Of a stretch of 64,000 nucleotides of DNA, positions 2,536-28,818 are shown piece after piece. The position numbers and the translations under genes are program-made. Under the pieces are notes generated by a model. It worked only from the letters and a program-made list of their open reading frames with translations, ran no database searches and was not told the origin of the DNA. This stretch comes from Eubacteriales bacterium (lineage in GTDB: Bacteria > Bacillota > Clostridia > Oscillospirales > CAG-272). Position 1 is the first letter of the stretch, and the number at the start of each line of letters is the position of its first letter. The stretch lies in assembly GCA_045597145.1 (NCBI GenBank), contig JAZODU010000069.1:8599-72598 (forward strand), in the 5' to 3' direction.

Positions 2536-3732
2536 TCAATCCCCGTACAAGCAACGGATCAGGCGAAATGCCTGCTCGGCGGTGTTTTTTAAGTTGCGAT
2601 AGGCGTTTTTTGCATCCATGGCATCCTCAAGCGTGCACACGGTGCGCAAAACCGGGAAAAAGGCATCGATGCCGTGCGCGTTGCAAGCCCCCGCGTCCTC
2701 GGCGACACAGCCTGCAAACGCGATCACGGGCTTGCCATAGTGCTTGGCAAGCGAGGCAACGCCGATAGGTGCTTTTCCCATGCAGGTCTGCCCGTCAAGG
2801 CGTCCCTCACCCGTTACCACGACGTCTGCGTCCTTGATAATCTCCTCAAGATGCGTGACGCGCATCACAAGAGAGATGCCCGACTCAAGACGCGCGTTCA
2901 GATAGGTCAGAAAGGCAAAGCCCATGCCGCCGGCCGCACCCGCGCCGGGGGATTCCGCGAACGCTCGCCCCGTGGTGTCCGCGCTGAGCTTGGCGTAACG
3001 ATCAAGACACGCGTCCATGTCCGCGATCATCTCGGGAGTGGCACCCTTTTGCGACCCGAACACCGCGCTGCAGCCGCGCTCACCGCATAAAGGATTGGTC
3101 ACGTCGCACGCGACGAAAAATTCACATTCCGCAAGGGCTTCAATCGCACCGCCGCAATCGATCTGCGAGAGGTGCGCAAGCCCGCGGGCACCATGCGGGA
3201 TCTCGTTTCCCGCGGCATCCCGAAAAGAAAATCCCAGTGCCTGCAGCATGCCGACGCCGCCGTCGTTGGTGGCACTGCCGCCAATACCGACGATGAACGT
3301 CCGACAGTTGTTTTTCTCTATGGCGTGCGCGATCAATTCGCCCACGCCATAGGTCGTGGTGACGCGCGGGTCGCGCCGTGCGGCAGGAATGAGCGTGATC
3401 CCTGCCGCCGCAGACATTTCAATAATCGCCGTGCGCGTATCGGGAAGCACGCCGTACACGGCTTCCACACGCTCCCCCAAGGGGCCCGACACCCACGCGC
3501 GGCAAAGCTGACCGCCCATAGCAGCTGCCAATGCCTCGACGGTACCCTCGCCGCCGTCTGCCAAGGGGCAGACGACCGTTTCTGCGTCGGGGACGGCTGC
3601 CCCGATCCCCTCGGCAACCGCGCGCCCCGCCTCCAAGGAGGACACGCTGCCCTTAAACGAATCTATCGCGATCGCTACCTTCATAGATTGTTCTTTTTTC
3701 TTCTCGAGCAAATCAAAAAATTCCACAAACAT
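2536..3732 (-). CDS. glxK: glycerate kinase
   Basis: Glycerate kinase family pattern throughout (MKVAIAIDSFKGS, GGSATNDGG, VVTGEGRLDGQT). Start set at ATG 3732, preceded by AAGGAGA. Alternative starts are 3684 (MKVAIAID) and 3765. Confidence 0.85.
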   Translation of the reverse strand: MFVEFFDLLEKKKEQSMKVAIAIDSFKGSVSSLEAGRAVAEGIGAAVPDAETVVCPLADGGEGTVEALAAAMGGQLCRAWVSGPLGERVEAVYGVLPDTRTAIIEMSAAAGITLIPAARRDPRVTTTYGVGELIAHAIEKNNCRTFIVGIGGSATNDGGVGMLQALGFSFRDAAGNEIPHGARGLAHLSQIDCGGAIEALAECEFFVACDVTNPLCGERGCSAVFGSQKGATPEMIADMDACLDRYAKLSADTTGRAFAESPGAGAAGGMGFAFLTYLNARLESGISLVMRVTHLEEIIKDADVVVTGEGRLDGQTCMGKAPIGVASLAKHYGKPVIAFAGCVAEDAGACNAHGIDAFFPVLRTVCTLEDAMDAKNAYRNLKNTAEQAFRLIRCLYGD

Positions 3733-3766
3733 AATTCTCCTTTGTTTTTTTGATACGTTCATCATT

Positions 3767-3816
3767 ACTGCTGTAAAATGAAATTTTGAGTTTCGCTCAA
3801 AAGTAACATTTGTCCT
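3767..3816. repeat. island repeat unit, copy A
   Basis: ACTGCTGTAAAATGAAATTTTGAGTTTCGCTCAAAAGTAACATTTGTCCT, with internal hairpin TTTTGAG-TTTCG-CTCAAAA. Confidence 0.8.
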
Positions 3817-4166
3817 TAACTGTTCCCCTTTGCGGTGGTGATGGAGGCGATGAGTCTACGTCTGATCGAACCGCATTTGTTTCGCAAATCTTTATACGTG
3901 ACCTCGTCCATTTTCCCTTTTCTGAATATCAATTCGAGCCAATATTCCGTTTCAGAACACTCTTTCAAAGAGATTTCCAATTTATTTATAAAATCCGCTT
4001 TGCTTTGGGCGTATTTTGCTTCGTGAATGTTTGCTCCGATTGACGACGAGGAGCGAACAATCTGGTTGACATAAACCGAACAGCCCTTTATTTCATCACA
4101 AAGATCAGAAATTTGAATTGCAAATTCGATTGCATCTTCACGGAGTTGGTTCTCGTTATCGTTCAT
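3816..4166 (-). CDS. four-helix bundle protein (23S rRNA intervening-sequence protein family)
   Basis: 116 aa from MNDNENQL (ATG 4166, RBS AAAGGAG). Family pattern IVRSSSSIGANIHEAKYAQSKADFINKLEISLKECSETEYWLEL. The longer track ORF reaching 4418 is rejected. Confidence 0.75.
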   Translation of the reverse strand: MNDNENQLREDAIEFAIQISDLCDEIKGCSVYVNQIVRSSSSIGANIHEAKYAQSKADFINKLEISLKECSETEYWLELIFRKGKMDEVTYKDLRNKCGSIRRRLIASITTAKGNS

Positions 4167-4189
4167 TTGATAAAACTCCTTTCTTTTTG

Positions 4190-4415
4190 TCGATATGTTC
4201 GCCATTGGCGAACTCGATATATGGTCGCTTTGCGACCATTCGATATATTTCTCGCTTCGCTCGAAATTCGATATGTTGCCTGCGGCAACGAGGGTCGATT
4301 GCACCGCACTAAAGTAACGTCTCTCGCTTTGCCCACAGGGCAAAGCATATCGAGCGCGAAGTGTCATATCGAACGCAAATCGTATATCGAACGACGCGTC
4401 AGCGGCGCATATCGA
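4190..4415. repeat. dyad array of eight YATATCGAR motifs with interspersed short hairpins
   Basis: TCGATAT occurs at 4190, 4214, 4240 and 4268. ATATCGA occurs at 4347, 4366, 4384 and 4409. Hairpins lie at 4198-4212, 4222-4238, 4276-4288 and 4327-4345. Confidence 0.7.
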
Positions 4416-4433
4416 CATCGAATCCGCGGGTCA

Positions 4434-4555
4434 AAGACACGACGGATTCGACGTGGGGTCAAGAGTACAAAAGGTATATTTTTGTGTCAAAAACGGGGGT
4501 TGTAAGTCCAAAAAGTCTCAAAAGCATAGGGGGAAAGTAACATTTGTCCCTAATT
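4434..4555. repeat. degenerate rlmCD 3'-end copy plus a ~100-bp arm (junction repeat R1)
   Basis: Minus strand 4455->4435 reads HVESVVS. The arm 4456-4555 aligns with 4771-4872. Confidence 0.65.
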
Positions 4556-4630
4556 TTTAAGTGATGCTTGTGAACATAAACTGCTGTAAAACGAACTTTT
4601 GAGTTTTGATCGAAAGTCACTTTTGTCCCT
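4535..4630. repeat. island repeat unit, copy B (permuted full unit)
   Basis: AAAGTAACATTTGTCCCTAATTTTTAAGTGATGCTTGTGAACATA is followed by AACTGCTGTAAAACGAACTTTTGAGTTTTGATCGAAAGTCACTTTTGTCCCT. Confidence 0.8.
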
Positions 4631-4734
4631 GTGCAAAATCAGGGCATTTTATGATTTTGAACACAGATTTTTGAAATTTTACCTCAAAACCACTCAAAAA
4701 GGCTTGATTTTGTCTATTTTAAGGCGATTTTGAC

Positions 4735-4770
4735 TTATTTTCTCGTCAGACAAACGACACTTTCGACGTG
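4735..4770 (-). pseudogene. orphan duplicate of the last 11 codons and stop of rlmCD
   Basis: Minus strand reads HVESVVCLTRK*, against HVESVVCLSRK* at the real gene end. 4747-4770 is identical to 11356-11379 (24/24 nt). Confidence 0.85.
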
Positions 4771-4872
4771 GGTCAAGAGAGCAAAAGGTCTCAAAATCGG
4801 TCAAAAACGGGGATTGTAAAACCAAAAAGTCCTCAAACCATAGGTGGAAAGTAACATTTGTCCCTGATTTTT
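4771..4872. repeat. ~100-bp arm homologous to 4456-4555 (junction repeat R2), ending in a partial repeat unit
   Basis: Shared blocks are GGTCAAGAG, CAAAAGGT, TCAAAAACGGGG, CCAAAAAGT and GAAAGTAACATTTGTCCCT. Confidence 0.7.
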
Positions 4873-4903
4873 CAAAAAAATCTAAAAAGTTACCTTTAAC
4901 CCC

Positions 4904-4932
4904 TGGACATTTATAAAATTTTATGTTATAAT
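4904..4932 (+). promoter_or_regulatory. sigma-A-type promoter of the m5C MTase gene
   Basis: TGGACA, 17-nt spacer, TGtTATAAT (extended -10 at 4924-4932). This favours the ATG at 4963 over 4933. Confidence 0.55.
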
Positions 4933-4962
4933 ATGAGCATAAAAAATGCAGGGGGAAATGTT

Positions 4963-6279
4963 ATGCCTTATGCAATAGATTTATTTTGCGGAGCGGGTGG
5001 ATGTTCCGAAGGATTAATCCAAGCAGGTTTTCACATATTATTCAGCTCCGATATAAGCGATATGGTGGAAAAAACCTATCGCCATAGACACGAACAACTC
5101 GGTCTCATTCAAGGAAAAAATACTTGGTTTCAACGTGAAGATATTCGCAATCTAAAAGGCAAAGATATAGAAAGATATATTTCGCAGTTGGAGATATTCC
5201 AAGGCGAACCGATTCCTGAAATTGATTTGTTGATCGGTGGTCCCAGTTGTCAGGGCTTTTCTCGTGCAGGCCGTCGGGATAAATCCGATCCACGAAATAT
5301 GCTTTTCGGGGAATATGTAAGAGTGGTGAGCGAAATAAAGCCCAAATACATTGTTCTTGAAAATGTCGAAGGATTCGTAGATATGCGATTTGTCGGGTAC
5401 AAAGGTATCACGGGAATCCAGTATCCCGATGGTAGTGTCACACCTAAAATTTTAAGAAGTGAATTAAGTGAAATTGGCTATGAAACACTTGAACCTAAAA
5501 TACTGAATGCTGCGGACTATGGTGTACCCCAAAGAAGAAATCGCGTCATTTTTATTGGCTTTAGAAAAGGATTGACACCGCCTAAATATCCAGAACCTAT
5601 TATTAATTCTGCCGATTATTTAACATTGACAGAAGCCATAGGTGATTTGATTGTCAGCGACGAAATACGAGCGAGAGTAAACAAGCAAGCCTCTCAGTAT
5701 CAACTTGATAGCCAAAGAGGTCGAACTCCGAGTGCTAACGGTATGCCTATAAAGTCAACTACTCCTAAAAATACAGAGTTATCCAAACAAACCCCTATCG
5801 TCATTGAAAGATTTTCTTTGTTTGAAGAGGGTGAAACAGGAACTATGTTGAAGCGAAGAATTTTGGAAAAAGGGATTGATTTAACAGGCAAAAATGCTTT
5901 AATCACACTCTGTGCTAAAAGTTTTGCGATGTCTAACGAAGCTGTTATTACGCTCTTCAGAGAGGCTCGTGCTACGATCACTCAAATAGAAGTTTTGCTC
6001 ACAAAAAAGAACATTCGCCAAAGATGGGCTTCAAATCAGCCTTCTGCAACGATAGTCACAATAGCCGACGATTATATCAGCCCGTGGGAAGATAGGACTT
6101 TCAGTGTGCGCGAAATGGCTCGTTGTCAATCTTTTGATGATTCGTTTGAATTTTTGGGAAAACGAACAACAGGCGGTTTGCAACGCCGAGTAGAAGTTCC
6201 GCAATACACTCAAGTTGGAAATGCGGTGCCACCGTTGCTTGCAAAAGCAGTTGCATTGGAAATTAAAAAAGTTTTATAA
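4963..6279 (+). CDS. DNA (cytosine-5)-methyltransferase (R-M module 1)
   Basis: Motif I DLFCGAGG. Motif IV GGPSCQGFS. Motif VI ENVEG. Motif VIII QRRNRVIFIG. Motif X TQVGNAVPPLLA. RBS GGGGGA lies before ATG 4963. Confidence 0.9.
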   Translation: MPYAIDLFCGAGGCSEGLIQAGFHILFSSDISDMVEKTYRHRHEQLGLIQGKNTWFQREDIRNLKGKDIERYISQLEIFQGEPIPEIDLLIGGPSCQGFSRAGRRDKSDPRNMLFGEYVRVVSEIKPKYIVLENVEGFVDMRFVGYKGITGIQYPDGSVTPKILRSELSEIGYETLEPKILNAADYGVPQRRNRVIFIGFRKGLTPPKYPEPIINSADYLTLTEAIGDLIVSDEIRARVNKQASQYQLDSQRGRTPSANGMPIKSTTPKNTELSKQTPIVIERFSLFEEGETGTMLKRRILEKGIDLTGKNALITLCAKSFAMSNEAVITLFREARATITQIEVLLTKKNIRQRWASNQPSATIVTIADDYISPWEDRTFSVREMARCQSFDDSFEFLGKRTTGGLQRRVEVPQYTQVGNAVPPLLAKAVALEIKKVL

Positions 6280-6313
6280 CTCTTGACGGGGTACTTATAT
6301 AGTACCCCTTTTT

Positions 6314-7522
6314 CTATGATTTCGTCAAGTCATATTCAATAGGAGTTCCTAAAAGCAACGGCAAATCTTGCGGTTTCATTTTAAAAAGCATACCGTGGTC
6401 TCGCCATTTACCTTCGGGGGTGTAGTGTGCAGCAATGTCGACTGTAATCTTATCCGTTTCCAACAGAGGTGCTATTAAAGAAGTGTTCGGATGTTTGGTG
6501 TGTAGTACTTTATCATATCGAAAATATTCAATGCTATTATGAATTTCCGAGACTGCTTTTACCCAAAATGTTTCGTGGTGTTTAACAAGCAAAGTTTGTG
6601 CAAGACCACTGATATACCAAGCGGAAACATACCGTCTTATTTCTTCTTGTTGATACATTATTTTTAGTTTGTCATCGTTCGCCGTAACCTCTAAAACAAG
6701 GTCATATGCGTTTATATGAGTCACCTTTAATGTATCGTATAACTGTAGTCGTGCGACCGTTGTTCCTTTTGGGATTTGTATTTTTCCGTATGCATCCACG
6801 ATTTGTCTATAGGTCATTCCATCATCGGGAACTTTGGTAAACAATGTAGACTTGGTTGAATGCCTAATTACACCGTCACGCGACAAGCGAGAGGTCTTTA
6901 ACTCTATGCCCTTGTAATCAGGCGTTTTTGCATTATTCCTTGAAATACCTAATGCGTGTTCAAGCGTATCTCCTACACCGGGATCTCCGCGAGTAATCGA
7001 AGGAATAAAACCGCGATTATGTATATTCTGTATCTTGTTGAGCAATTCGCGAGCAACCACATTGTCTTGATGGACCGACTCCAGTAGAATATCATATACG
7101 AATGCTTTTTTGAATAAAGATTCTACAATTTTGGCATCAGAAAGGTTTATTACATATATTTTTTTGTTGGCTATAATGAGTGCTAAAAGGTTACAAGGAG
7201 AACAATAGTGGGTAAGTTTACTAAACCAAATTCTCGGGTCGCCCTTTTTTGTTAAAGGACGATAAAGGGAGGCAACGGTTTCTTGTACTTTATCGGGATA
7301 TACAAAATAACTTTGAACTAAAGTCTTGGCGTTAGGACCTTGATTTTGTGCCTCGTAATCGTGTATATCTTTATTCTTTAAAAGTTCGCGCACAGGAGCT
7401 GTTGCATCCATTATAGATTTACCATAACCAGTAGGCGTAGGTACGAGAAAAGCAACTGAAACACCCGTATCTGCAAAAATGGGAAGGAATTGTTCTATAT
7501 CGGTATCGGACATTAGTAACAT
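6314..7522 (-). CDS. type II restriction endonuclease, MvaI/BcnI (MutH/Sau3AI-like) catalytic domain with a ~165-aa N-terminal extension
   Basis: GDPGVGDTLEHALGISRNNAKTPDYKGIELKT matches the (G)xGxxxExxLG...PDxxxIE-x-K core. The C-terminal VDIAAHY...WRDHGMLFKM resembles the MvaI VDIRIGAY...HDHGTAFRI block, as I recall it. The gene is convergent with the MTase. Confidence 0.65.
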   Translation of the reverse strand: MLLMSDTDIEQFLPIFADTGVSVAFLVPTPTGYGKSIMDATAPVRELLKNKDIHDYEAQNQGPNAKTLVQSYFVYPDKVQETVASLYRPLTKKGDPRIWFSKLTHYCSPCNLLALIIANKKIYVINLSDAKIVESLFKKAFVYDILLESVHQDNVVARELLNKIQNIHNRGFIPSITRGDPGVGDTLEHALGISRNNAKTPDYKGIELKTSRLSRDGVIRHSTKSTLFTKVPDDGMTYRQIVDAYGKIQIPKGTTVARLQLYDTLKVTHINAYDLVLEVTANDDKLKIMYQQEEIRRYVSAWYISGLAQTLLVKHHETFWVKAVSEIHNSIEYFRYDKVLHTKHPNTSLIAPLLETDKITVDIAAHYTPEGKWRDHGMLFKMKPQDLPLLLGTPIEYDLTKS

Positions 7523-7561
7523 AGTTTAAAACTCCTTTGTTTTTCTCGATATGTTACCCCT

Positions 7562-7640
7562 AACTGCTGCAAAATGTACTTTCGAGTTTCGCTCAAAAGC
7601 AACATTTTTCCCTAATTTTTAAGTGGTGCTTGTGAACATA
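7562..7640. repeat. island repeat unit, copy C (full)
   Basis: AACTGCTGCAAAATGTACTTTCGAGTTTCGCTCAAAAGCAACATTTTTCCCTAATTTTTAAGTGGTGCTTGTGAACATA. Confidence 0.8.
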
Positions 7641-7647
7641 TCAGAGA

Positions 7648-8916
7648 TTACATTCCGTTATAGTTCTCCCATCTCCACCGCAAGAACTCTTTATTTGTGA
7701 AATCGGGAATCACAATACGAGGAGGAATCAATGCACCGTAATCCATTCTCGCCCTCGAAGATAGTTCAACAATTCCTGTTTCTGAAATACGTAAATGTCC
7801 TGTGTCGAATAAAGTATGTATGTCGGTTCTCATTGCAAATCCGTTCGCAACAGTATCTTCACCATTATACTTGAAGGGTTTTATGTGTGCAGCTTCTAAA
7901 ACCTCGGGCATCGTAACATTTGTAATTACACAACGTTGACAAGCCTTAAGTACTTCTCTTCTAAAGTTTGCTTGATTCGGTCTTGCCGTTCTCATTGTTT
8001 GAACACGTTTTCTTTCAACTTCAGATGTAACTTCTGTTGCTCGAATTTGAGCTAACGCAGATATAAGCGATTCGTCTTTGGGCTTTTGAGCAATGATTGC
8101 AGAAATTTCATCTAGTATAACGGCACTAATAGCATATTTTTCAGCCATCCTTGTGTTGCCGCCTATAAGATTGATATATCCGTAATTTGAAAGGAACAAC
8201 AAGTATTCTCGTGCTATACGCATGTCATTGGCTTCGGGGCAACAATTGGGCCATCCAATTAGAGATATTTCACCTGCCCTATACCAAAGTATGAAATTAA
8301 CATAGTCTTCTATTTCCGCATGGCATCCCGACAATGGAATAATCACTTTTATCAGTTCTTCGGTGGTGATATAACCCTGCCCTAATTCTTGAAGCTTCAT
8401 TTGAATTTCAAGGATTAGCCTTAGCGGATATAAGACCAAATTGTGTTCAAGCCAACGAGCACATTCCTGCTGACTTTGAATTTGGGCGTTAGGCAATTTA
8501 AAGGTTTGAACTGTTATTGCTGCAAACTCGGTTTGCGAAATATCATGGTCGGCGATCCTTCTACCAAATTCGGTTAATTGGATTTGCCCCGAGCGTCCGC
8601 CCGGAGGAATTAATCCCAAGGCTCTCCAATATTGTCCTGAATTTCTAATTAAATTCCGTTCGCCGGCCCTTCTTTCTAAATCCACGCCGACGGAATCTTT
8701 TATGTCATTAGATAAATCTATCAGTTCTTTTGCAAATTCATCTGAACTGTATTTCACGCCCAAAGGCTCTAACTTTCGCATTCTGAACAAAACGCCAAGC
8801 AATACAACGGGGTCATTCAATCCCTCTGTACATTGTAGGCATGCCCATTTCCATTTAAATTCGGGAAAGGGCTTTACTGGTACATAATTTTTAGGTAACA
8901 TATTATTTTTCCTCAA
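7648..8916 (-). CDS. HNH nuclease, putative restriction endonuclease of R-M module 2
   Basis: C-terminal HNH block: FRREVLKACQRCVITNV...LEAAHIKPF...NGFAMRTDIHTLFDTGHL. It is the last gene of the C-M-M-R operon and overlaps the MTase stop by 14 nt. I cannot assign the N-terminal ~300 aa. Confidence 0.7.
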   Translation of the reverse strand: MRKNNMLPKNYVPVKPFPEFKWKWACLQCTEGLNDPVVLLGVLFRMRKLEPLGVKYSSDEFAKELIDLSNDIKDSVGVDLERRAGERNLIRNSGQYWRALGLIPPGGRSGQIQLTEFGRRIADHDISQTEFAAITVQTFKLPNAQIQSQQECARWLEHNLVLYPLRLILEIQMKLQELGQGYITTEELIKVIIPLSGCHAEIEDYVNFILWYRAGEISLIGWPNCCPEANDMRIAREYLLFLSNYGYINLIGGNTRMAEKYAISAVILDEISAIIAQKPKDESLISALAQIRATEVTSEVERKRVQTMRTARPNQANFRREVLKACQRCVITNVTMPEVLEAAHIKPFKYNGEDTVANGFAMRTDIHTLFDTGHLRISETGIVELSSRARMDYGALIPPRIVIPDFTNKEFLRWRWENYNGM

Positions 8917-9829
8917 AATCGTTAAACATACGAGCTACAGCGTATCCCAATAGCGGGGGAACAGCATTACCAATTTGTCTATATACGGACGAACGATTGC
9001 CCGTAAACTCAAATCGCAAAGGAAAACTTTGCACTGTAGCAAGCTCCCTACAAGACATTCTTCGTGCTGCGTTGGGATGCGGCAAAATAACAACTCCACC
9101 TTTGCTGTCTCCTCTTGCAGTAACAGTAGGTGCGGGTTTTTCAGGATCAAGTGGACGGTGACCCAAATAACCGTTAAACTCTAATTTGTATTTTGAATAC
9201 TCATGATTCGGTAAATCGTTAGGCTGGTCGGGGTCAGGAATATTGGACAATGCCGATAAAACGCTTACCCACTTTGGTAAACCGTTACTACCGTTTTTGT
9301 CGTGTGTAGGCGACGGAAATACATATTCAAAATCCAAATCCGAACGAACACCCACAATAATCACTCTCTGTCGAGTCTGCGGAACCCCAAAATCAGCGGC
9401 GTTTAACACTTTCGCACAGACGTTATAGCCCAAATCGCGAAAATCAGAGAGAATCATCTCAAACACTTTTCCGCCTAACAAATTCGTTAATCCCTTGACA
9501 TTTTCAGCCAAGAAAAATTTTGGCTTTTTAGCATCAATGACACGAATCAGCTGTTTATACAATGCGTTTCTTGTGTCGTCCGCATGACGTTTGGTGTTTG
9601 CAACCGAAAAACCCTGACAAGGAAATCCCCCAATTACAATATCACAATTCGGAATATCTGCCTCATTGATTTTAGATATATCTTCGCAAACAATATGGTC
9701 TCCAATATTCTTTCTATATGTGTTTACCGCATCTTCGTATAAATCATTTGCCCAAATTATAGTGTGACCGGCCATTATAAAACCCAAGTCTAGACCGCCA
9801 GCACCGCTAAACAAAGATACTGCTTTCAT
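8903..9829 (-). CDS. DNA (cytosine-5)-methyltransferase (module 2, second copy)
   Basis: Motifs SLFSGAGGLDLG, GGFPCQGFS, ENVKG, QTRQRVIIVG, RRMSCRELATVQSFP and YRQIGNAVPP. Confidence 0.9.
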   Translation of the reverse strand: MKAVSLFSGAGGLDLGFIMAGHTIIWANDLYEDAVNTYRKNIGDHIVCEDISKINEADIPNCDIVIGGFPCQGFSVANTKRHADDTRNALYKQLIRVIDAKKPKFFLAENVKGLTNLLGGKVFEMILSDFRDLGYNVCAKVLNAADFGVPQTRQRVIIVGVRSDLDFEYVFPSPTHDKNGSNGLPKWVSVLSALSNIPDPDQPNDLPNHEYSKYKLEFNGYLGHRPLDPEKPAPTVTARGDSKGGVVILPHPNAARRMSCRELATVQSFPLRFEFTGNRSSVYRQIGNAVPPLLGYAVARMFNDFEEK

Positions 9830-10761
9830 CTGATTACTTCCTTTTCCAATCTTATCAATTCTTCACCTAGTAATTTTGCAAATTTGACGGGAACAGCATT
9901 GCCAATTTGCCTATAACAAGCCCCCATCGCTCCAACAAATTCAAAATTTTCCGGAAAGGTTTGAACGCTCGCACTTTCTCGAATTGTTAATCTGCGTGTT
10001 CCATTATAATGTGGTATAGCACAAACTCCGCCTTTCCCATTTCCCCGCGCCAAAATAGTAGGTGATGGCTTGTCAGGCTCTGTCTGTCTATGTCCCGTGA
10101 AATTGCGATACTCAACTTTGTAAGAAGAACAAATATGATTCAATACAGTATGCGTGCTTGCAGGGTCAGGAAAATGATCGATAGCTTCTTTTATCGAAAC
10201 CCATGCAAGAGGACTTCCACTTTTTGAGTGAGTAGGTGTGGGGAAACGAAACAACAATTCTTTCCCTATGTCTGTTCTTTGTCCGATGATAATAACTCTC
10301 TGTCTTGTTTGAGGCACACCATAATCTGCCATATTAACTAAAGTTACAGATGTGATATACCCCGCTTGTTCGAAATCATTGATGATTTGTCGAATTGCCG
10401 TCCCATTACCCAAGCTCAAAATCCCTTTTACATTCTCTGCAATGAAAAACTTAGGTTGCTTAATAAGTATTGTGTTGTAAAAAAATTTATATAGTTGATT
10501 TCTGTCATCGTCAACAGTTCTAAGAAGATTAGCCTGTGAGAATCCCTGACAAGGAAATCCACCAACTACTACATCGGCATCGGGAAGCGTATGAATATCA
10601 ATGTTTTTTATGTCATCACACACTATGTGTTCACCAATATTTTTTTTGTATGTTGCTACGGCATCTTTATCAAAGTCATTAGCCCAAATTACACTATTTC
10701 CTGCTTGAATCAACCCTAAATCCAAACCACCCGCACCACTAAATAAAGATATTATCTTCAT
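9826..10761 (-). CDS. DNA (cytosine-5)-methyltransferase (module 2, first copy)
   Basis: Motifs SLFSGAGGLDLG, GGFPCQGFS, ENVKG, QTRQRVIIIG, RRLTIRESASVQTFP and YRQIGNAVPV. It has a 4-nt overlap with both neighbours. Confidence 0.9.
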   Translation of the reverse strand: MKIISLFSGAGGLDLGLIQAGNSVIWANDFDKDAVATYKKNIGEHIVCDDIKNIDIHTLPDADVVVGGFPCQGFSQANLLRTVDDDRNQLYKFFYNTILIKQPKFFIAENVKGILSLGNGTAIRQIINDFEQAGYITSVTLVNMADYGVPQTRQRVIIIGQRTDIGKELLFRFPTPTHSKSGSPLAWVSIKEAIDHFPDPASTHTVLNHICSSYKVEYRNFTGHRQTEPDKPSPTILARGNGKGGVCAIPHYNGTRRLTIRESASVQTFPENFEFVGAMGACYRQIGNAVPVKFAKLLGEELIRLEKEVIR

Positions 10762-10976
10762 TGCGCTTCTCCTGTTTCTTTAGTTACATCCATAATATCA
10801 TCAAAACTGCATTCTAACGCATTGCAGATGCGGAGCATAATATCCATAGACACAGTTTCATTCTTGCCGAGCTTGGCAAGAGTGGTTGTTGACATATCCG
10901 TTGCAAGTCGCAGATCGGTTTTTGTCATACCCTTATCTATGAGCAATTTCCATAGTTTATTGTAGCTTACTGCCAT
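10758..10976 (-). CDS. XRE-family HTH protein, putative R-M controller (C) protein
   Basis: 72 aa with HTH MTKTDLRLATDMSTTTLAKLGKNE. It is the first gene of the operon, and its stop overlaps the MTase start. Confidence 0.7.
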   Translation of the reverse strand: MAVSYNKLWKLLIDKGMTKTDLRLATDMSTTTLAKLGKNETVSMDIMLRICNALECSFDDIMDVTKETGEAQ

Positions 10977-11008
10977 ATGTAAAACCTCGTGTTTTCAAAG
11001 TTATCTCT

Positions 11009-11037
11009 ATTATAACATATCTGTCCGCGAATTTCAA
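11009..11037 (-). promoter_or_regulatory. sigma-A-type promoter of the C-M-M-R operon
   Basis: Minus strand reads TTGAAA, 17-nt spacer, TGtTATAAT. A GAGG RBS lies before ATG 10976. An AACATATC motif (11014-11021) overlaps the -10 box. Confidence 0.6.
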
Positions 11038-11196
11038 CAAAATATCAGAGAAAACAAATATTTTATGCGTAGATTTTGATACTCAATCGGTGTGTGGAAA
11101 CATATCAAAAGCCATTTTTATCGTTGCATTACTATTTTCAAGGAAAAACGTGCAATTTCAGGTCAAAATAGCCGTTTTTGTTCGATATGTTATACT

Positions 11197-11248
11197 AAAC
11201 TGCTGTATTTTGATTTTTGACCACGGGGTGAAAATCACTTTTGTCCCT
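11197..11248. repeat. island repeat unit, copy D (diverged)
   Basis: AAACTGCTGTATTTTGATTTTTGACCACGGGGTGAAAATCACTTTTGTCCCT, preceded by TTCGATATGTTA at 11181-11192. Confidence 0.7.
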
Positions 11249-11270
11249 ACTTGAAAATTTGACAAAACAC

Positions 11271-11312
11271 AAAAAAGAACAGCCTTTTGACCGAAAAACA
11301 CGCTCAAAAGGC
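11271..11312 (-). terminator. intrinsic terminator of rlmCD
   Basis: Hairpin AGCCTTTTGA...TCAAAAGGCT (11281-11312), followed on the minus strand by a T-run (plus-strand AAAAAAGAAC at 11271-11280). Confidence 0.6.
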
Positions 11313-11343
11313 TGAAAAACGCCCGTTTTAGGGTCAAAATCGC

Positions 11344-12711
11344 TTATTTTCGGGACAGACAAACGACACTTTCGACGTGCCCTGTCCTCGGAAACATATC
11401 CACGGGCGTCACAACCCCAATCTCATACCCCAATTTTCTAAACAGCGCACAATCGCGGGCGAGCGTATCGGGACCGCAGGAAACGTAGACGATGCGCTCA
11501 AAATTCCGCGCCGCAAGGTACTCGATCAGCTCGGGCGTGCTTCCCTTGCGCGGCGGGTCCATGATGACCGTAGCACCCGAAACGTCACCGTGTGCGCTCT
11601 CTGCGCGCTCCAACAGATGCCGTGCATCGGACGCGTCACCGCAATAAAAATAAGCATTCTCAACGCCGTTACGTGCGGCGTTTTCTCTTGCGCGCGCGAC
11701 CGCCACCTCAACGATCTCGATGCCGATCACCCGATCGGCGTTCTTCGCCATGGAAAGCCCGATCGTGCCGATGCCGCAATAAAGATCCAGCACGGTTTCG
11801 CCACCCGTCAGCGCGGCTTTCTCGCGCGCCGTGGCGTAAAGCAGCTCGCACGCGTCGTGATTGACCTGATAAAACGCGCCCGCAGAAATGCAAAAGCGCA
11901 GACCGCACAGGATATCCTCGATCCATTCTCGCCCCGCCAGAAGTCGGTAGTCCTTCCCAAGCACCACGTTGGTGTTTTGCGTGTTGACGTTGAGCATCAC
12001 GCTCTTAACGCCCGAAAATTTTCCGCACAAGCCATCGGCAAGCCGCTCTTCGTTCGGCAAGCTCTTGCCGTTGACCACGAGGCAGACCATGGTCTCACCC
12101 GTCCCCTCGCCCATGCGCAGATAGATGTGGCGCAAAAGCCCCTTACGCGTTTCCTCATCGTACGCTTTGATGCCGTTTTGGTCGCAAAACGCGCATATGT
12201 ACGACAAAATCTCCCCGAACACGGGGGGCTGGAGGCGGCAATCCGTGCACGGCACGACGCGGTGCGTGCCCGTAGCGTAAAAGCCCGCCACCATGCCGCT
12301 CTTGCCGTTTGCCACGGGGTACTGCGCCTTGTTGCGGTAGCCCGTGAGCCGCCCCGTGGAAAGCACGGGATCGACGTGCACGTCAAAAAGCCCCGCCTTG
12401 CGGAAGGCGTTTTCCACGTAGTTGCGCTTAAGCTCCAGCTCGTGCTCGTATTTGACGTTTTTATACACGCAGCCGCCGCATCCGCGCGCCGCGCAAACGT
12501 ACCCGTCCTCGCGCAGGCGCGAGGGGGTACGCATTTTTTCGATCCGTGCGACAAGGTAATTCTTCGTCACCTTGATGATGCGCGCGTCCAATAGGTCGTC
12601 GGTCACGCCGTCGCTCACGAACACGACCTGTCCCTCGGGAGTGTGCGCCACGCCGAAGCCGAGGTTGTTGATCTCCTCGATAGACAGCGTGATAACGTCA
12701 TTCTTTTGCAT
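11344..12711 (-). CDS. rlmCD: 23S rRNA (uracil-5-)-methyltransferase, RumA/RlmCD family
   Basis: 455 aa with an N-terminal TRAM-like domain, a Cys cluster (CAARGCGGCVY) and a C-terminal SAM MTase (LDLYCGIGTIG, DPPRKG). Confidence 0.85.
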   Translation of the reverse strand: MQKNDVITLSIEEINNLGFGVAHTPEGQVVFVSDGVTDDLLDARIIKVTKNYLVARIEKMRTPSRLREDGYVCAARGCGGCVYKNVKYEHELELKRNYVENAFRKAGLFDVHVDPVLSTGRLTGYRNKAQYPVANGKSGMVAGFYATGTHRVVPCTDCRLQPPVFGEILSYICAFCDQNGIKAYDEETRKGLLRHIYLRMGEGTGETMVCLVVNGKSLPNEERLADGLCGKFSGVKSVMLNVNTQNTNVVLGKDYRLLAGREWIEDILCGLRFCISAGAFYQVNHDACELLYATAREKAALTGGETVLDLYCGIGTIGLSMAKNADRVIGIEIVEVAVARARENAARNGVENAYFYCGDASDARHLLERAESAHGDVSGATVIMDPPRKGSTPELIEYLAARNFERIVYVSCGPDTLARDCALFRKLGYEIGVVTPVDMFPRTGHVESVVCLSRK

Positions 12712-13382
12712 CAGGCGTAAAACTCCTCGCCCGTTTCAAGGCACAGGCAGGCAAGCTTACCGCCCTCGCACGCGCCGCAATCCATAAGGATACTGCCCGC
12801 GCCGCGCTCGATCCTGCCGCTTTTCGTGGGCACGTGACCAACCACGACCGTCTTGCCCTTGACCAGTGCCACCTCGGGATCAATGGGAGAGGAGAAAAAG
12901 TCCTCGGGCTGATAGTCCTCAAGGTCGGTGTCGGGCTCGTAATCGGCAATGCCTGCGTGCACCAGCAGATACTCCTTGCCGCCTGCCTCGACCTCCTCAA
13001 ACAGCGTCATATCGGACAGATAATCCAGAACGCCCTCTCTTTGCTCCTCGTCAAGCGCGCGGAAGCCGTCAAGCGTTGCCTGACCGCCGTTCTGCACCCA
13101 GGCGGTCATCTCGGAGATATAGACCGCGTCGGGCGTTGCGCCGCTTTTGAGCATTTTATCAAAACCGTAGAGCATACGCGCGGCGAGATAGTCGTGCTCA
13201 CCCGCGATCGCGTAAACGTTGAGGCGCACGCTGACGTCCGCGATCAGCTCCATTGCCTCCTCGCCAAAATCAACGAGGTCGCCGAGCAGATACAGCACGT
13301 CGTTCTCCTTGAAGGCGATCTCGGAGAGCAGCGCGCGGAATTTTTGATAGTTGCCGTGAATATCGGAAATAACATACGTCAT
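12711..13382 (-). CDS. metallophosphoesterase (Ser/Thr phosphatase-like)
   Basis: MTYVISDIHGN, LLGDLVDFG and GHVP motifs. The stop overlaps the rlmCD start by 1 nt (TGATG). Confidence 0.8.
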   Translation of the reverse strand: MTYVISDIHGNYQKFRALLSEIAFKENDVLYLLGDLVDFGEEAMELIADVSVRLNVYAIAGEHDYLAARMLYGFDKMLKSGATPDAVYISEMTAWVQNGGQATLDGFRALDEEQREGVLDYLSDMTLFEEVEAGGKEYLLVHAGIADYEPDTDLEDYQPEDFFSSPIDPEVALVKGKTVVVGHVPTKSGRIERGAGSILMDCGACEGGKLACLCLETGEEFYA

Positions 13383-27205: not shown

Positions 27206-27346
27206 ATGAAGCATATCGAAACCATCGAAACTCGCAACCTGTGCGAGAGCGCAAAGAACGGCGGCTGCGGCGAATGCCAGACCTCTTGCCAGTCCGCTTG
27301 CAAGACCAGCTGCGGTATCGCTAACCAGCAGTGCGAGAACAAGTAA
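27206..27346 (+). CDS. scfA: SCIFF (six-cysteine ranthipeptide) precursor peptide
   Basis: Not in the ORF track (46 aa): MKHIETIETRNLCESAKNGGCGECQTSCQSACKTSCGIANQQCENK. A GGAGG RBS lies 6 nt upstream. It is followed by the cognate maturase. Confidence 0.9.
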   Translation: MKHIETIETRNLCESAKNGGCGECQTSCQSACKTSCGIANQQCENK

Positions 27347-27360
27347 TTTGGCTTTCATGA

Positions 27361-27391
27361 AAAATGCCGCCGACTACGGCGGCATTTTTCG
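27361..27391 (+). terminator. intrinsic terminator/attenuator between scfA and scfB
   Basis: ATGCCGCCG-ACTA-CGGCGGCAT followed by TTTTC. Confidence 0.7.
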
Positions 27392-27429
27392 TCTGCCTCC
27401 CTATCTTTTACGCAAAGGAAGTACAAAAC

Positions 27430-28818
27430 ATGATCCATCAATACAAGCTTGGCGGCTATAACATCGTTCTCGACACCGCGTCGGGCGGCGTACACGTGGT
27501 TGACGACGTGGCGTATGACATCATCGCCATGTTTGCGGACTGCGACCGCGACGCTGTGATCGCGGCAATGAACGAAAAATACATCGGCGTGGACGGCATC
27601 ACCGCTGAGGATATCACGGAATGCTACGAGCAGGTAGAGGCACTGAAGGAGTGCGGCAAGCTCTTCTCCCCCGACACGTTCGAGGGCATGGCGGGTCACC
27701 TGAAGGAAAAGACCGCAGGCGTTGTCAAGGCTCTGTGCCTGCACATCGCGCACACCTGCAACCTCAACTGCGCCTACTGCTTTGCAAGTCAGGGCAAGTA
27801 CCACGGCGACCGCGCCGTGATGAGCTTTGAGGTCGGCAAGCAGGCACTGGATTTTCTCGTTGCCAATTCGGGCACGCGCCGCAACCTTGAGGTCGACTTC
27901 TTCGGCGGCGAGCCTTTGATGAACTTTGACGTGGTCAAGCAGCTCGTGGCGTACGCGCGCTCGATCGAAAAGGAGCACAACAAGAATTTCCGCTTCACGC
28001 TGACCACGAACGGGCTTCTGATCGACGACGACGTGATCGATTTTGCCAACCGTGAGTGCAGCAACGTCGTGCTCAGCCTCGACGGACGGAAAGAAATCCG
28101 CCACCACTATCGCGTGGACTACGCAGGAAACGGCAGCTGGGAAAAAATCGTTCCCAAGTTCCAGAAGCTCGTGGCAGCGCGCGGCGGCAAAAACTACTAC
28201 ATGCGCGGCACCTTCACCCACGCCAACCCCGATTTTCTCAAGGACATTCAGGTCATGCTCGACCTCGGATTTAACGAGCTGAGCATGGAGCCCGTGGTCT
28301 GCGCACCCGGTGACCCATCGAAATTGACCGAGGCGGATCTGCCGATCGTGCTTGACCAGTACGAAAGGCTGGCTGAATTGATGCTTGAGCGCGACCGCGA
28401 GGACCGCCCCTTTACCTTCTACCACTACATGATCGACCTGACAGGCGGTCCTTGCATCTACAAGCGCATCTCGGGCTGCGGCTCGGGCACGGAGTACATG
28501 GCAGTCACGCCTTGGGGTGACCTCTACCCCTGCCACCAGTTCGTGGGCGAGGAAAAATTCAAGCTGGGCAACATCTGGCAAGGCGTTACAAACAAAGAAA
28601 CGCAATGCGATTTCGCCTCCTGCAACGTCTACGCGCGTCCCGATTGCCGCGACTGCTGGGCAAAGCTCTATTGCTCGGGCGGCTGTGCCGCAAACGCTTA
28701 CCACTCCACGGGAAGCGTGACGGGCGTTTACAAATATGGCTGTGAGCTCTTCCGCAAGAGAATGGAATGTGCCATCATGGTGGAGATCGCGCGCACGCTG
28801 GCAAGAAAAGCAAAATGA
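27430..28818 (+). CDS. scfB: SCIFF radical SAM maturase (thioether cross-link forming, SPASM domain)
   Basis: MIHQYKLGGYNIVLD N-terminus, CNLNCAYC radical SAM motif, and C-terminal Cys-rich SPASM region (CGSG...C..CWAKLYCSGGC). Confidence 0.9.
   Translation: MIHQYKLGGYNIVLDTASGGVHVVDDVAYDIIAMFADCDRDAVIAAMNEKYIGVDGITAEDITECYEQVEALKECGKLFSPDTFEGMAGHLKEKTAGVVKALCLHIAHTCNLNCAYCFASQGKYHGDRAVMSFEVGKQALDFLVANSGTRRNLEVDFFGGEPLMNFDVVKQLVAYARSIEKEHNKNFRFTLTTNGLLIDDDVIDFANRECSNVVLSLDGRKEIRHHYRVDYAGNGSWEKIVPKFQKLVAARGGKNYYMRGTFTHANPDFLKDIQVMLDLGFNELSMEPVVCAPGDPSKLTEADLPIVLDQYERLAELMLERDREDRPFTFYHYMIDLTGGPCIYKRISGCGSGTEYMAVTPWGDLYPCHQFVGEEKFKLGNIWQGVTNKETQCDFASCNVYARPDCRDCWAKLYCSGGCAANAYHSTGSVTGVYKYGCELFRKRMECAIMVEIARTLARKAK

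Follow-up and report, generated by a model that had tools for sequence, protein, structure and literature searches.

Dyad-symmetric arrays of heptamers and hairpins upstream of Avd-like four-helix-bundle genes in gut Clostridia and phages

What is an array of eight copies of one heptamer, set in two inverted halves, doing directly upstream of a gene for a small four-helix-bundle (4HB) protein? The question is raised by a locus in a window of 64,000 nucleotides (the whole stretch of DNA that was analysed) on a contig of a Eubacteriales bacterium. Exact heptamers are present four times per strand, as ATATCGA on the plus strand at 4347, 4366, 4384 and 4409 and as TCGATAT at 4190, 4214, 4240 and 4268, with both sides pointing outward from a centre, as a preliminary description of the sequence had reported. 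The extended motif YATATCGAR, which it gave for all eight copies, fits six of them and fails for the remaining two; the outermost copies both read CATATCGAC, as it had said, and form a perfect 10-nt inverted repeat (4188–4197 with 4408–4417). Chance is no explanation for this array: the 64 kb contain 19 ATATCGA matches vs. 7.0 expected, a number reached in none of 100 shuffles, and eight of the 19 fall inside 226 nt (P(≥8) ~1e-16 at the background rate of the other 11). The matches at 6515, 27213, 60626, 62883 and 62916 lie in coding sequence without a surrounding array and look like chance, and no second array of this kind was found within the window. We rejected a CRISPR-like array, as the spacers are palindromic and the repeats too short, and Spo0A, DnaA, parS, cre and C-box sites are unlikely, as their consensus sequences appear not to match. 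The locus is made up of the following parts:

3816–4166, minus strand: gene for the 4HB protein (116 aa), partner of the array in cis
4176–4181, minus strand: Shine-Dalgarno sequence AAGGAG, with the last heptamer 8 nt before it and the ATG (4166) 9 nt after it
4190–4274, minus strand: gene-proximal half-array ("b-half"), with ATATCGA at 4268–4274, 4240–4246, 4214–4220 and 4190–4196
4247–4267 (tandem-G.A), 4221–4239 and 4197–4213, minus strand: hairpins of the proximal half, alternating with its heptamers
4275–4346, minus strand: centre, with an extra hairpin at 4275–4289 and hairpin hp4 at 4327–4345
4295–4307, minus strand: degenerate fifth heptamer and segment C (TCGATTGCACCGC) of the centre, complementary to 4402–4415
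4305–4325, minus strand: stretch of the centre resembling the island's repeated module
4347–4415, minus strand: distal half-array ("a-half", Gut-1-type), with four TCGATAT on the minus strand
4354–4365, 4373–4383 and 4391–4408, minus strand: spacers of the distal half, hairpins partly eroded
4415–4454, minus strand: hairpin hp8, with arms 4415–4426 and 4443–4454

Hairpins were found where the preliminary description had put them (4198–4212, 4222–4238, 4276–4288 and 4327–4345), the first three extending by one more pair each, to 4197–4213, 4221–4239 and 4275–4289. The hairpin that it had called imperfect is present as well (4247–4267); it is not a degenerate version of the others but a special, conserved hairpin, which on the minus strand reads stem-GAGC-GAA-GCGAG-stem with a tandem G.A and is common to most of the related arrays examined. 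The right-half spacers (4354–4408) are weakly palindromic, with perfect runs of 1, 3 and 2 pairs vs. 7, 8 and 5 on the left; as the right-half spacers of homologs are clean hairpins too, the window copy is partly eroded on the right. The centre of this copy, at 79 nt start-to-start, exceeds the ~35 nt of most copies. One arm of hp8 is a remnant of an rlmD-like gene 3' end (4430–4457), and the equivalent of hp8 in relatives is a long variable hairpin, on an rlmD or pgi gene end or serving as a terminator.

The preliminary description was to be refuted if the array proved to be translated as part of a longer conserved protein. A 200-aa ORF does run through it; however, the extension is not conserved among the 4HB relatives, whose family start is MNDNEN (4166) with the Shine-Dalgarno sequence at 4176–4181 ahead of it, and the window array is thus untranslated. 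The junction from the heptamer through CAAAAGGAG to the ATG is identical in five related elements (L132, L189, L190, L204 and L224). The protein matched the PF05635 (1.4e-22) and TIGR02436 (6e-26) profiles and, by sequence, PDB 2RLD (1.9e-34). Its predicted fold is Avd-like: an AlphaFold model from single-sequence input (pLDDT 87.5) was matched by Foldseek to 2RLD (TM 0.87), 2GSC (0.85), Avd 4DWL (0.78–0.84) and the Avd chains of the DGR RNP 8UB7 (0.77–0.81). Such PF05635/TIGR02436 4HB proteins are very common, occurring with rRNA intervening sequences, in cas and RM operons and in DGRs (Avd); outside DGRs we know of no role for them. PF05635 has been handled as the Avd family (PMC10053308). 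Identical-protein look-ups for the 4HB protein (with both possible starts) and for the XRE protein returned no record, PHROGs held no family for the 4HB protein, and in the literature on this gene family we found no description of the array. A BLAST search of 3766–4932 against phage and plasmid collections gave weak matches confined to the 4HB gene; those to phages led to distant examples of the array.

Searching for the array beyond the window, as the preliminary description had proposed, we identified more than 35 elements of the form "----++++" (4+4) with conserved spacing in a genome scan and viral scans, carried by MAGs of Oscillospiraceae, Acutalibacteraceae, Christensenella and other gut Clostridia and by phage contigs. 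A first, loose three-heptamer pattern (gaps 10–22) had returned mostly chance or tandem-repeat matches, and a tighter pattern was then used; genome-scan matches in Bacillus, Vibrio and Bacteroidetes were 7- or 21-nt tandem repeats and unrelated, and the island's boundary module had no match in a viral scan. The reading in the preliminary description was also to fail if homologous loci did not conserve motif number, spacing or hairpin geometry; they keep all three with differing stems, the motif number being 4+4 and the spacing ~22/24/26 – 35 – 19/19/25. The window array is one somewhat eroded copy of a conserved dyad heptamer-hairpin family. Each family element consists of two half-arrays on opposite strands, each with four identical heptamers and three short alternating hairpins; the distal one is of Gut-1 type, and directly after the proximal one comes the ribosome-binding site or the promoter of a TIGR02436/PF05635 (Avd-like) gene; in the window, likewise, the half-arrays are inverted and complementary and the proximal one lies directly upstream of such a gene. 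At least eight heptamer pair types occur (including ATATCGA, ATATCGC, ATATCAC and ATTTCAC), which are alike within an element and differ between lineages, the distal heptamer being the reverse complement of the proximal one except in L199, a hybrid of distal TCGATAT with proximal ATATCGC. This hybrid, together with the mixed first copies of L276 and L278, indicates that strict heptamer complementarity is not obligatory.

The link between array and 4HB gene, suggested at first from the window by itself, is real and general among relatives. Every one of 33 non-redundant regions upstream of 4HB relatives (from phage, viral and metagenome contigs) has at least the proximal half, ~30 have both halves, and among 125 ORFs flanking related elements the only recurrent families are PF05635 and the rlmD-type methyltransferase. 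Approached from the DNA pattern, a 4HB gene lies 15–28 nt downstream in nine of ~40 ATATCGA-type elements and about three-quarters of the elements of this type found by pattern have no adjoining 4HB gene, showing that the array can exist, apparently multiply, without the gene in cis.

What is conserved in these elements is pairing. Folding energies of 148 spacers average -3.4 to -3.7 kcal/mol vs. -0.56 in shuffles, and in an alignment of 19 sequences 96.2% of cells are paired vs. 68.8% in shuffles and 21–44% in slid controls; double changes are seen in 25 of 30 pairs of this alignment, with 161 double-change cells vs. three one-sided ones. Selection on structure, which the differing stems of the window had suggested, is thus supported by spacers that stay paired across the family while their stems change. 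A ladder fold, in which heptamer helices are added to the hairpins, is ~20 kcal/mol better than the hairpins alone and is in the MFE of about two-thirds of elements, and across the family segment C is complementary to the first distal hairpin arm (6.4/8 vs. 4.9 when permuted, a value that none of 500 permutations reached). Against such a ladder, it is unusual for seven-base helices to have perfect four-way junctions on their flanks, and the two strands yield disagreeing single-sequence MFE predictions.

G.T-type pairs number 15 among ~1,300 stem pairs and show no strand bias in the distal half (4 vs. 3), and a strand assignment from wobble pairs was dropped for having too few counts to decide. 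Loops of the proximal half are GAA, AAA, GCA and GTCA, and those of the distal half are exact complements (TTC, TGC, TTGC and TGAC), such that in either half it is the heptamer strand that has the G-N-A triloops, many of them in GCGAAGC units; as DNA, the mini-hairpin d(GCGAAGC) is exceptionally stable. Scarce wobble pairs, G-N-A loops on opposite strands and a varying promoter position together point towards DNA. Loop-loop kissing between the halves was dropped, as by eye the loops are unmatched within an element.

We put at about one in two the probability that the array is a folded single-stranded scaffold controlling the cassette, with heptamers recognised by a factor that is lineage-specific and probably the 4HB protein. 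In a single-stranded state (RNA, or single-stranded or cruciform DNA) the spacers would fold out as hairpins, and the distal and proximal heptamers could then pair into four 7-bp helices with three four-way junctions between them; alternatively, the heptamers may be read as eight identical sites. That the heptamer is the same within an element and different between lineages suggests a lineage-specific, sequence-specific reader, for which the 4HB protein is the candidate, being the only one constantly linked, an assignment we infer from linkage alone. Adjacent sequences co-diverge anyway, which is the weak point of any such linkage. Avd, the DGR homolog of the 4HB protein, is a pentamer inside a structured nucleoprotein. 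Avd is basic, and the 4HB protein of the window is acidic to neutral (pI 5.9), which counts against an Avd-like reader role. Folding or binding at the last heptamer would determine how the 4HB gene and those downstream of it are expressed. The last heptamer lies 4–8 nt from the Shine-Dalgarno sequence in ATATCGA and ATATCGC types; in ATTTCAC and ATATCAC types it is the -35 or -10 that heptamers overlap, and in L279 and L280 a promoter directly follows the array, with heptamers over its -35 or -10. Loci of the L280 type occur on more than 40 gut contigs.

The sole curated precedent for this design is classified as an RNA. Gut-1 (Rfam RF01706) is an sRNA class whose published description, confined to the human gut and based on 43 representatives, gives no function, gene association, dyad partner or organism, and which was rated "RNA? 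Y" by Weinberg et al. 2010 (PMC2864571). The Gut-1 consensus, four (G/U)UGAAAU heptamers with three hairpins and the first spacer longest, is the design of a half-array, and the half-arrays of the window share this architecture of four heptamers and three hairpins (covarying across the family), the distal one also in having its first spacer longest. On the distal halves of 4HB-linked relatives with GTGAAAT/GTGATAT heptamers the Gut-1 model scored 88.9 bits (L279) and 54.8 bits (L280), against a gathering threshold of 50 bits; it gave 45 bits on a proximal half, on the opposite strand, and 27 bits at most on ATATCGC types. The window heptamer TCGATAT differs from that of the Gut-1 consensus, and the covariance model found no match in the window (3000–13000 at E≤1, 4150–4480 at E≤10), nor did Rfam yield anything relevant there. 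Relative to Gut-1, what is new is a second, inverted half, the association with a 4HB gene, the variation in the heptamer and the hosts, which are Oscillospirales and Christensenellales MAGs and phages. Gut-1, in Rfam since 2010 without organism, neighbour or function, and the PF05635/TIGR02436 family are hereby joined as halves of one unit, which is dyad-symmetric, changes its heptamers in concert between lineages and has identifiable gut Clostridia and phages as hosts, and the two are now testable together.

Given this precedent, a purely RNA-level element, i.e., a Gut-1-class RNA transcribed with or next to the 4HB gene and having no dedicated protein, is a tentative possibility, although on balance an unlikely one. 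It might serve for processing or insulation, its halves pairing into a long, interrupted stem for RNase III to cut, as happens in 23S rRNA intervening sequences with the same gene family, or it might be a 5' stabiliser or a conformational switch in which segment C competes with the first hairpin. The sRNA classification and rating of Gut-1, the two scores above threshold and the strong covariation, which extends to the mutually exclusive pairings of the centre segment and the first hairpin, all speak for an RNA, as do a conserved TATAAT just 5' of hp8 in the "gaattc" subfamily and L268, an array (L025) inside a phage late operon with scaffold and capsid genes either side, the co-orientation of ~16 of 20 elements with the upstream gene (counted by eye) and the tandem-G.A hairpin, which is specific to the 4HB sense strand. 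However, in L279, L280 and L287 a strong terminator ahead of the array and the 4HB promoter behind it place the array outside the mRNA, G.U pairs are nearly absent, one loop grammar on opposite strands of the two halves is not what a single transcript would predict, and a sequence common to all eight helices is an identity that pairing alone does not need. The structured RNA leader considered in the preliminary description agrees in this way with its curated precedent, but not with the relatives that have a terminator before the array and a promoter after it.

Unlikely as well, in our estimate, is a DNA-level recombination or mobility site, at which folded single-stranded or cruciform half-arrays would mark the insertion, duplication and deletion of cassettes, the distal half providing a landing pad at the 3' ends of genes for an incoming cassette of proximal half and 4HB gene, and solo copies being non-autonomous, MITE- or REP-like relatives. 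Several MAGs carry at least 3–6 copies (e.g., at least five loci in JAFXJW, and at least three loci with at least six matches in Christensenella UBA3217), and near-identical copies stand at separate loci of one genome (L149, L145, L124/L188). Rearranged forms would fit too: the distal half is directly repeated on either side of the 4HB gene in L190, L204 and L222, solo distal halves adjoin the RBS of unrelated genes in L128 and L229, and there are permuted "++++----" and internal-deletion forms (L243, L132). Recurrent sites are the rlmD 3' end, where TCGATAT is part of the VDMFP codons, and the stretch immediately following a tRNA gene. The purely Watson-Crick stems and the placement of the G-N-A triloops count on the same side, and the DGR target hairpin is a precedent for a DNA hairpin, perhaps contacting Avd (PMC3240598). 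Set against this, the 125 flanking ORFs include no recurrent transposase, integrase or HUH gene, the lone Rep-like neighbour being in L014 (for which reason we dropped an HUH Rep origin), the flanks of 35 elements show no target-site duplication, and the window has one copy. A stem of 4 bp is also not long enough to extrude from duplex DNA unaided.

A foldback MITE, also proposed at the outset, accommodates the multicopy solo elements and the terminal inverted repeats of the window (4188–4197 with 4408–4417); it does not accommodate halves that are otherwise not copies of each other, nor the lack of target-site duplications (flanks of 35 elements) and of a transposase (125 flanking ORFs), MITEs having TIRs and target duplications. 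Like MITEs and REP/BIME (REPIN) elements, the arrays are short, non-coding, hairpin-forming, multicopy and intergenic or at 3' ends, come as inverted pairs on opposite strands, and are alike within a genome and divergent between genomes. Within a genome, REP palindromes keep a common sequence, and they are tied to RAYT transposases, whereas the stems of an array all differ within one element, at every position, and it is the linkers that are conserved; no Y1 transposase or RAYT was found among the neighbours.

More speculatively, the complementary half-arrays may constitute a nucleic-acid-guided docking system, in which cassettes of a proximal half and a 4HB gene would find Gut-1-type distal pads at gene 3' ends by four discontinuous 7-bp pairings, the spacers standing out as G-N-A-looped ssDNA hairpins and an Avd-like 4HB oligomer acting as a reader specific for structure and sequence. 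We regard this as quite improbable; if true, it would be a new kind of small mobile cassette with no recognisable recombinase, related, as a free-living form, to the intervening sequences of 23S rRNA and to the Avd/hairpin portion of DGRs.

Very improbable is a conventional duplex operator, iteron or centromere array of the parC kind for an HTH or partition protein (XRE or a host regulator), which the preliminary description had put forward as an iteron or operator array and which does capture the eight identical sites in two inverted sets and the promoter hexamers overlapped by heptamers in L279 and L280, but which leaves unexplained a spacing of 18–28 nt that tracks hairpin length and keeps no constant helical phase, as well as conserved spacer palindromy with free stem sequence, which plays no part in duplex binding. 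Promoter adjacency is found in some subfamilies only, the elements have ordinary chromosomal genes as neighbours or lie within a phage structural operon, and among the 125 flanking ORFs there is no recurrent XRE or partition gene and no HTH family recurring beyond two AraC-type matches; the island XRE gene is 6 kb off, and its protein is unsupported as a reader.

Among known systems, the array can be compared with the DGR target hairpin, in which the stem varies and one strand has a 5'-GRNA loop; this hairpin was shown to act as DNA, and a contact with Avd is possible (Guo et al. 2011, PMC3240598). Both are short hairpins with a free stem and a purine-rich loop on a defined strand, in systems having a PF05635-type 4HB protein. 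The DGR target, however, is a single hairpin with a 7–10 bp GC-rich stem downstream of the variable repeat, whereas the array has eight hairpins and intervening heptamers; the DGR target also requires a reverse transcriptase and template repeat, and we found no YxDD ORF of ≥200 aa in the window (a crude test) and no RT family among the neighbours of related elements. If the array is read at the DNA level, the principle of a structure-read DNA hairpin would extend from DGR targets to a much larger class, and this could explain the spread of small 4HB genes into operons and rRNA genes.

Resemblances to other systems are looser. In type III toxin-antitoxin toxI-toxN loci, the toxI array lies directly upstream of a small protein gene, sometimes with a terminator between; its repeats are identical 34–36-nt direct repeats and its partner is an endoribonuclease. 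The attC sites of integrons are conserved in structure and read as a folded single strand between cassettes, and they need R and L boxes and the integron integrase. The array family has neither toxI-like identical direct repeats nor attC-type boxes and integrase. The 23S rRNA intervening sequences (IVSs) of Leptospira and Coxiella carry the same gene family (S23p/PF05635) as the window, and are bounded by inverted repeats that pair once transcribed, the IVSs being cut out by RNase III; we know of no heptamer-plus-hairpin repeat design described for them. Unlike IVSs, the window and most loci have both halves upstream of the gene and outside rRNA, but L190, L204 and L222, in the order proximal half, 4HB gene and distal half, have the topology of an IVS.

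The eight heptamers that a preliminary description had reported were all located, TCGATAT starting at 4190, 4214, 4240 and 4268 and ATATCGA at 4347, 4366, 4384 and 4409, and the hairpins it quoted lie where it had placed them. ATATCGA occurs 19 times in the 64 kb against 7.0 expected, a count reached in none of the shuffles, and at the background rate the Poisson probability of eight heptamers within 226 nt is ~1e-16; no second array of this kind was found within the 64-kb window. The spacers hold 7, 8 and 5 perfect stem pairs in the left half and 1, 3 and 2 in the right half. The array is situated between the start of a gene for a four-helix-bundle (4HB) protein and a remnant of an rlmD-like gene:

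3816-4166, minus strand: 4HB gene (PF05635, TIGR02436)
4430-4457: remnant of the 3' end of the rlmD-like gene

We conclude, with a probability of about 0.9, that this is a conserved dyad array related to the Rfam family Gut-1 (RF01706) and partnering 4HB genes. When one genome per species was scanned, the matches listed included more than 35 elements (a lower bound) with the same '----++++' layout, nearly all in MAGs of gut Clostridia (Oscillospiraceae, Acutalibacteraceae, Christensenella, Faecousia, Congzhengia and 'Eubacteriales'), and a viral scan found the divergent 4+4 layout in two independent phage contigs, L014 and L025. The start-to-start spacing of the heptamers is conserved and asymmetric, at ~22/24/26 on the gene side, ~35 at the centre and 19/19/25 on the far side, and the spacers are in every case hairpins with both ends flush with the heptamers. 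Their mean folding energy (n=148) was -3.4 to -3.7 kcal/mol versus -0.56 when shuffled, and in a 19-sequence alignment 96.2% of cells were paired, versus 68.8% in shuffles and 21-44% with slid partners, with changes on both sides in 25 of 30 pairs. This folding and covariation therefore uphold the claim of structure-conserving hairpins, heptamer number, spacing and hairpin geometry all being conserved in homologues. Along the coding strand of the 4HB gene (the minus strand of the window) the parts are ordered as follows:

hp8, a long variable hairpin
a-half (distal), TCGATAT-hairpin four times
hp4, a hairpin
centre segment C
b-half (proximal), ATATCGA-hairpin three times and a final ATATCGA
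CAAAAGGAG and the ATG

Segment C reverse-complements the 5' arm of the first a-half hairpin together with a portion of the first heptamer, and its sequence covaries with the arm from subfamily to subfamily (AAATCCC, AAATCTC, AAATTCC, GAATTCT, TGCTCCC, GTGCCAC and others), matching at 6.4 of 8 positions versus 4.9 when permuted, and none of 500 permutations scored as high. The core stem-GARC-GNA-GYGAR-stem, containing tandem G.A, is conserved in a single b-half hairpin, in most cases the first; the hairpin described earlier as imperfect is in fact this one. When single strands were folded, the a and b heptamers paired in nested order in ~2/3 of the MFE structures, and the computed heptamer-paired ladder was more stable than hairpins alone by ~20 kcal/mol. 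In Christensenella sp. UBA3217, two loci (L146, L174) have half-arrays embedded among other repeats: ATTCCGC/ATTCCGA heptads occur in runs, and CATGATGTA separates the members of a further series of hairpins. The composite is duplicated in tandem, ~400 nt apart.

Rfam gave no relevant match in the window, including the array region 4150-4480. The Gut-1 model nevertheless scored the a-half of two related loci above its threshold of 50 bits (L279, 88.9 bits; L280, 54.8 bits), as well as reaching 45 bits on the b-half of related loci on the opposite strand and 27 bits on ATATCGC types; because it scores these relatives and not the window, the array here is a diverged Gut-1 variant beyond reach of the curated model. 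In the Gut-1 consensus three hairpins accompany four (G/U)UGAAAU heptamers, which is the design of one half-array. Gut-1 was described from human-gut sequences only, with 43 representatives, as 'certainly' RNA and not cis-regulatory (PMC2864571); its dyad partner and gene link appear undescribed in the literature searched. More than 40 human-gut contigs (L284-L326) share a locus with a tRNA, a bidirectional terminator hairpin, a GTGATAT/ATATCAC array matching Gut-1, a promoter and a 4HB gene, and are probably the population behind the original Gut-1 definition.

Among the matches listed, a 4HB gene lies 15-28 nt past the last heptamer in 9 of ~40 ATATCGA-type elements. The only families recurring in 125 flanking ORFs were PF05635 and the rlmD-type methyltransferase, with no recurring transposase, integrase or regulator. 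A protein-first survey, covering two distant homologues in phage records, four viral loci and the best 80 of 474 metagenome relatives, found a b-half in 33/33 non-redundant regions upstream of 4HB genes and also an a-half in ~30 of them. Heptamer pair types (a/b) included TCGATAT/ATATCGA, GCGATAT/ATATCGC, ACGATAT/ATATCGT, ATGATAT/ATATCAT, GTGATAT/ATATCAC, TCGATGT/ACATCGA, GTGAAAT/ATTTCAC and TGAAATT/AATTTCA. Within an element the copies are alike, with a- and b-heptamers reverse complements of each other, except in L199 (about 2690-2870 of that locus), a hybrid of a TCGATAT distal and an ATATCGC proximal half, and in L276/L278, where the first copy of each half has G/C where the other three have A/T; the two halves can therefore be recombined. 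The predicted 4HB model (pLDDT 87.5) matches 2RLD and 2GSC (TM ~0.85), as well as Avd, the accessory protein of diversity-generating retroelements (DGRs), in 4DWL and the Avd chains of the DGR ribonucleoprotein 8UB7 (TM ~0.8). At several loci (L255/L261, L249/L262, L260 and L268) a small variable unannotated ORF starts ~5-110 nt after the 4HB stop, which suggests that the array-4HB unit heads small variable operons.

As to mechanism, we infer, at somewhat less than even odds for the scheme as a whole, that the hairpin spacers would fold out, that the eight identical heptamers would then either pair or serve as sites for a lineage-specific factor, with the 4HB oligomer as its likeliest identity, and that this pairing or reading would set cassette expression. 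Two other explanations, a protein-independent RNA element and a site of single-stranded-DNA recombination or mobility, are not mutually exclusive with it. The Gut-1 precedent in Rfam speaks for RNA, as do a conserved TATAAT immediately preceding hp8 in L268 as well as in one subfamily, the placement of an array within a phage late operon, the bias of array orientation towards that of the upstream gene, and the strand-specific G.A hairpin. A simple RNA reading is, however, at odds with L280 and L279, where the array follows a terminator and is itself followed by a good promoter whose -10 or -35 is overlapped by heptamers, with the near absence of wobble pairs (15 of ~1,300 stem pairs), with stem changes that were one-sided in 3 cases and two-sided in 161, and with a single loop grammar on opposite strands, the b-half having GAA/AAA/GCA/GTCA and the a-half the exact complements. 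These hairpins include many GCGAAGC units, and d(GCGAAGC) forms a DNA mini-hairpin of exceptional stability. Experimentally, the nearest parallel is the hairpin at DGR targets: its stem is free in sequence, a 5'-GRNA loop lies on one strand, and it functions as DNA, possibly in contact with Avd (PMC3240598).

Signs of mobility are the several copies in some MAGs (among the matches listed), hairpin sequences common to copies at different loci of one genome (L149, L145, L124/L188), solo a-halves adjoining the RBS of unrelated genes (L128, L229), an additional a-half beyond the 4HB gene (L190, L204, L222), permuted '++++----' forms and deletion derivatives, and recurrent sites directly after tRNA genes and at the rlmD 3' end, where the VDMFP codons contain TCGATAT; yet neither a target duplication nor a recombinase was found around the related elements. 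In the phage contig L014, a gene for a rolling-circle Rep-like protein (5313-6026 of that contig, minus strand; PF23343 REP_ORF2-G2P, 7e-12; HUH-like LHHH and YLTKE motifs) ends 4 nt from the array, the sole such neighbour among the 125 ORFs.

The array is at one end of a low-GC island (~40% versus 57% GC) between a glycerate kinase gene and the rlmD-like gene:

3766-11343: restriction-modification island with three Dcm (C5-cytosine) methylases, an MvaI/BcnI-type endonuclease, an HNH/AlwI-like endonuclease and a small XRE gene with its stop codon overlapping the start of the first methylase
11350-11378, 4745-4772 and 4430-4457: last codons of the rlmD-like gene (HVESVVCL...), the first copy native
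4456-4558 and 4770-4872: direct repeat
3748-3815, 4570-4628, 7545-7611 and 11181-11246: repeated ~70-nt module between island gene blocks

Each rlmD 3'-end copy is followed by a related flank of ~100 nt. Because the island holds two extra rlmD 3' ends with such flanks, its sequence suggests serial insertion at the end of this gene, and the copies look like att-type duplicates from these insertions; the island yielded no integrase. The array and 4HB gene come directly after rlmD in L214, the closest relative, whose 4HB protein is 93% identical. The ~70-nt module, absent from the viral contigs, reads TCGATATGTT ... CTGCTGTAAAA ... hairpin TTTTGAG-N5-CTCAAAA ... AAAGTAACATTTGTCC, and its minus-strand end, AACATATCGA, an A-run, AGGAG and the ATG of the next gene, resembles the array's last heptamer; the module may derive from the b-half by reduction. 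Elsewhere in the window, one chance ATATCGA match falls inside the gene of a SCIFF six-cysteine ranthipeptide precursor (27206-27346, plus strand; TIGR03973, 80 bits), which is followed by the gene of its radical-SAM maturase (27364-28818, plus strand; TIGR03974, 748 bits).
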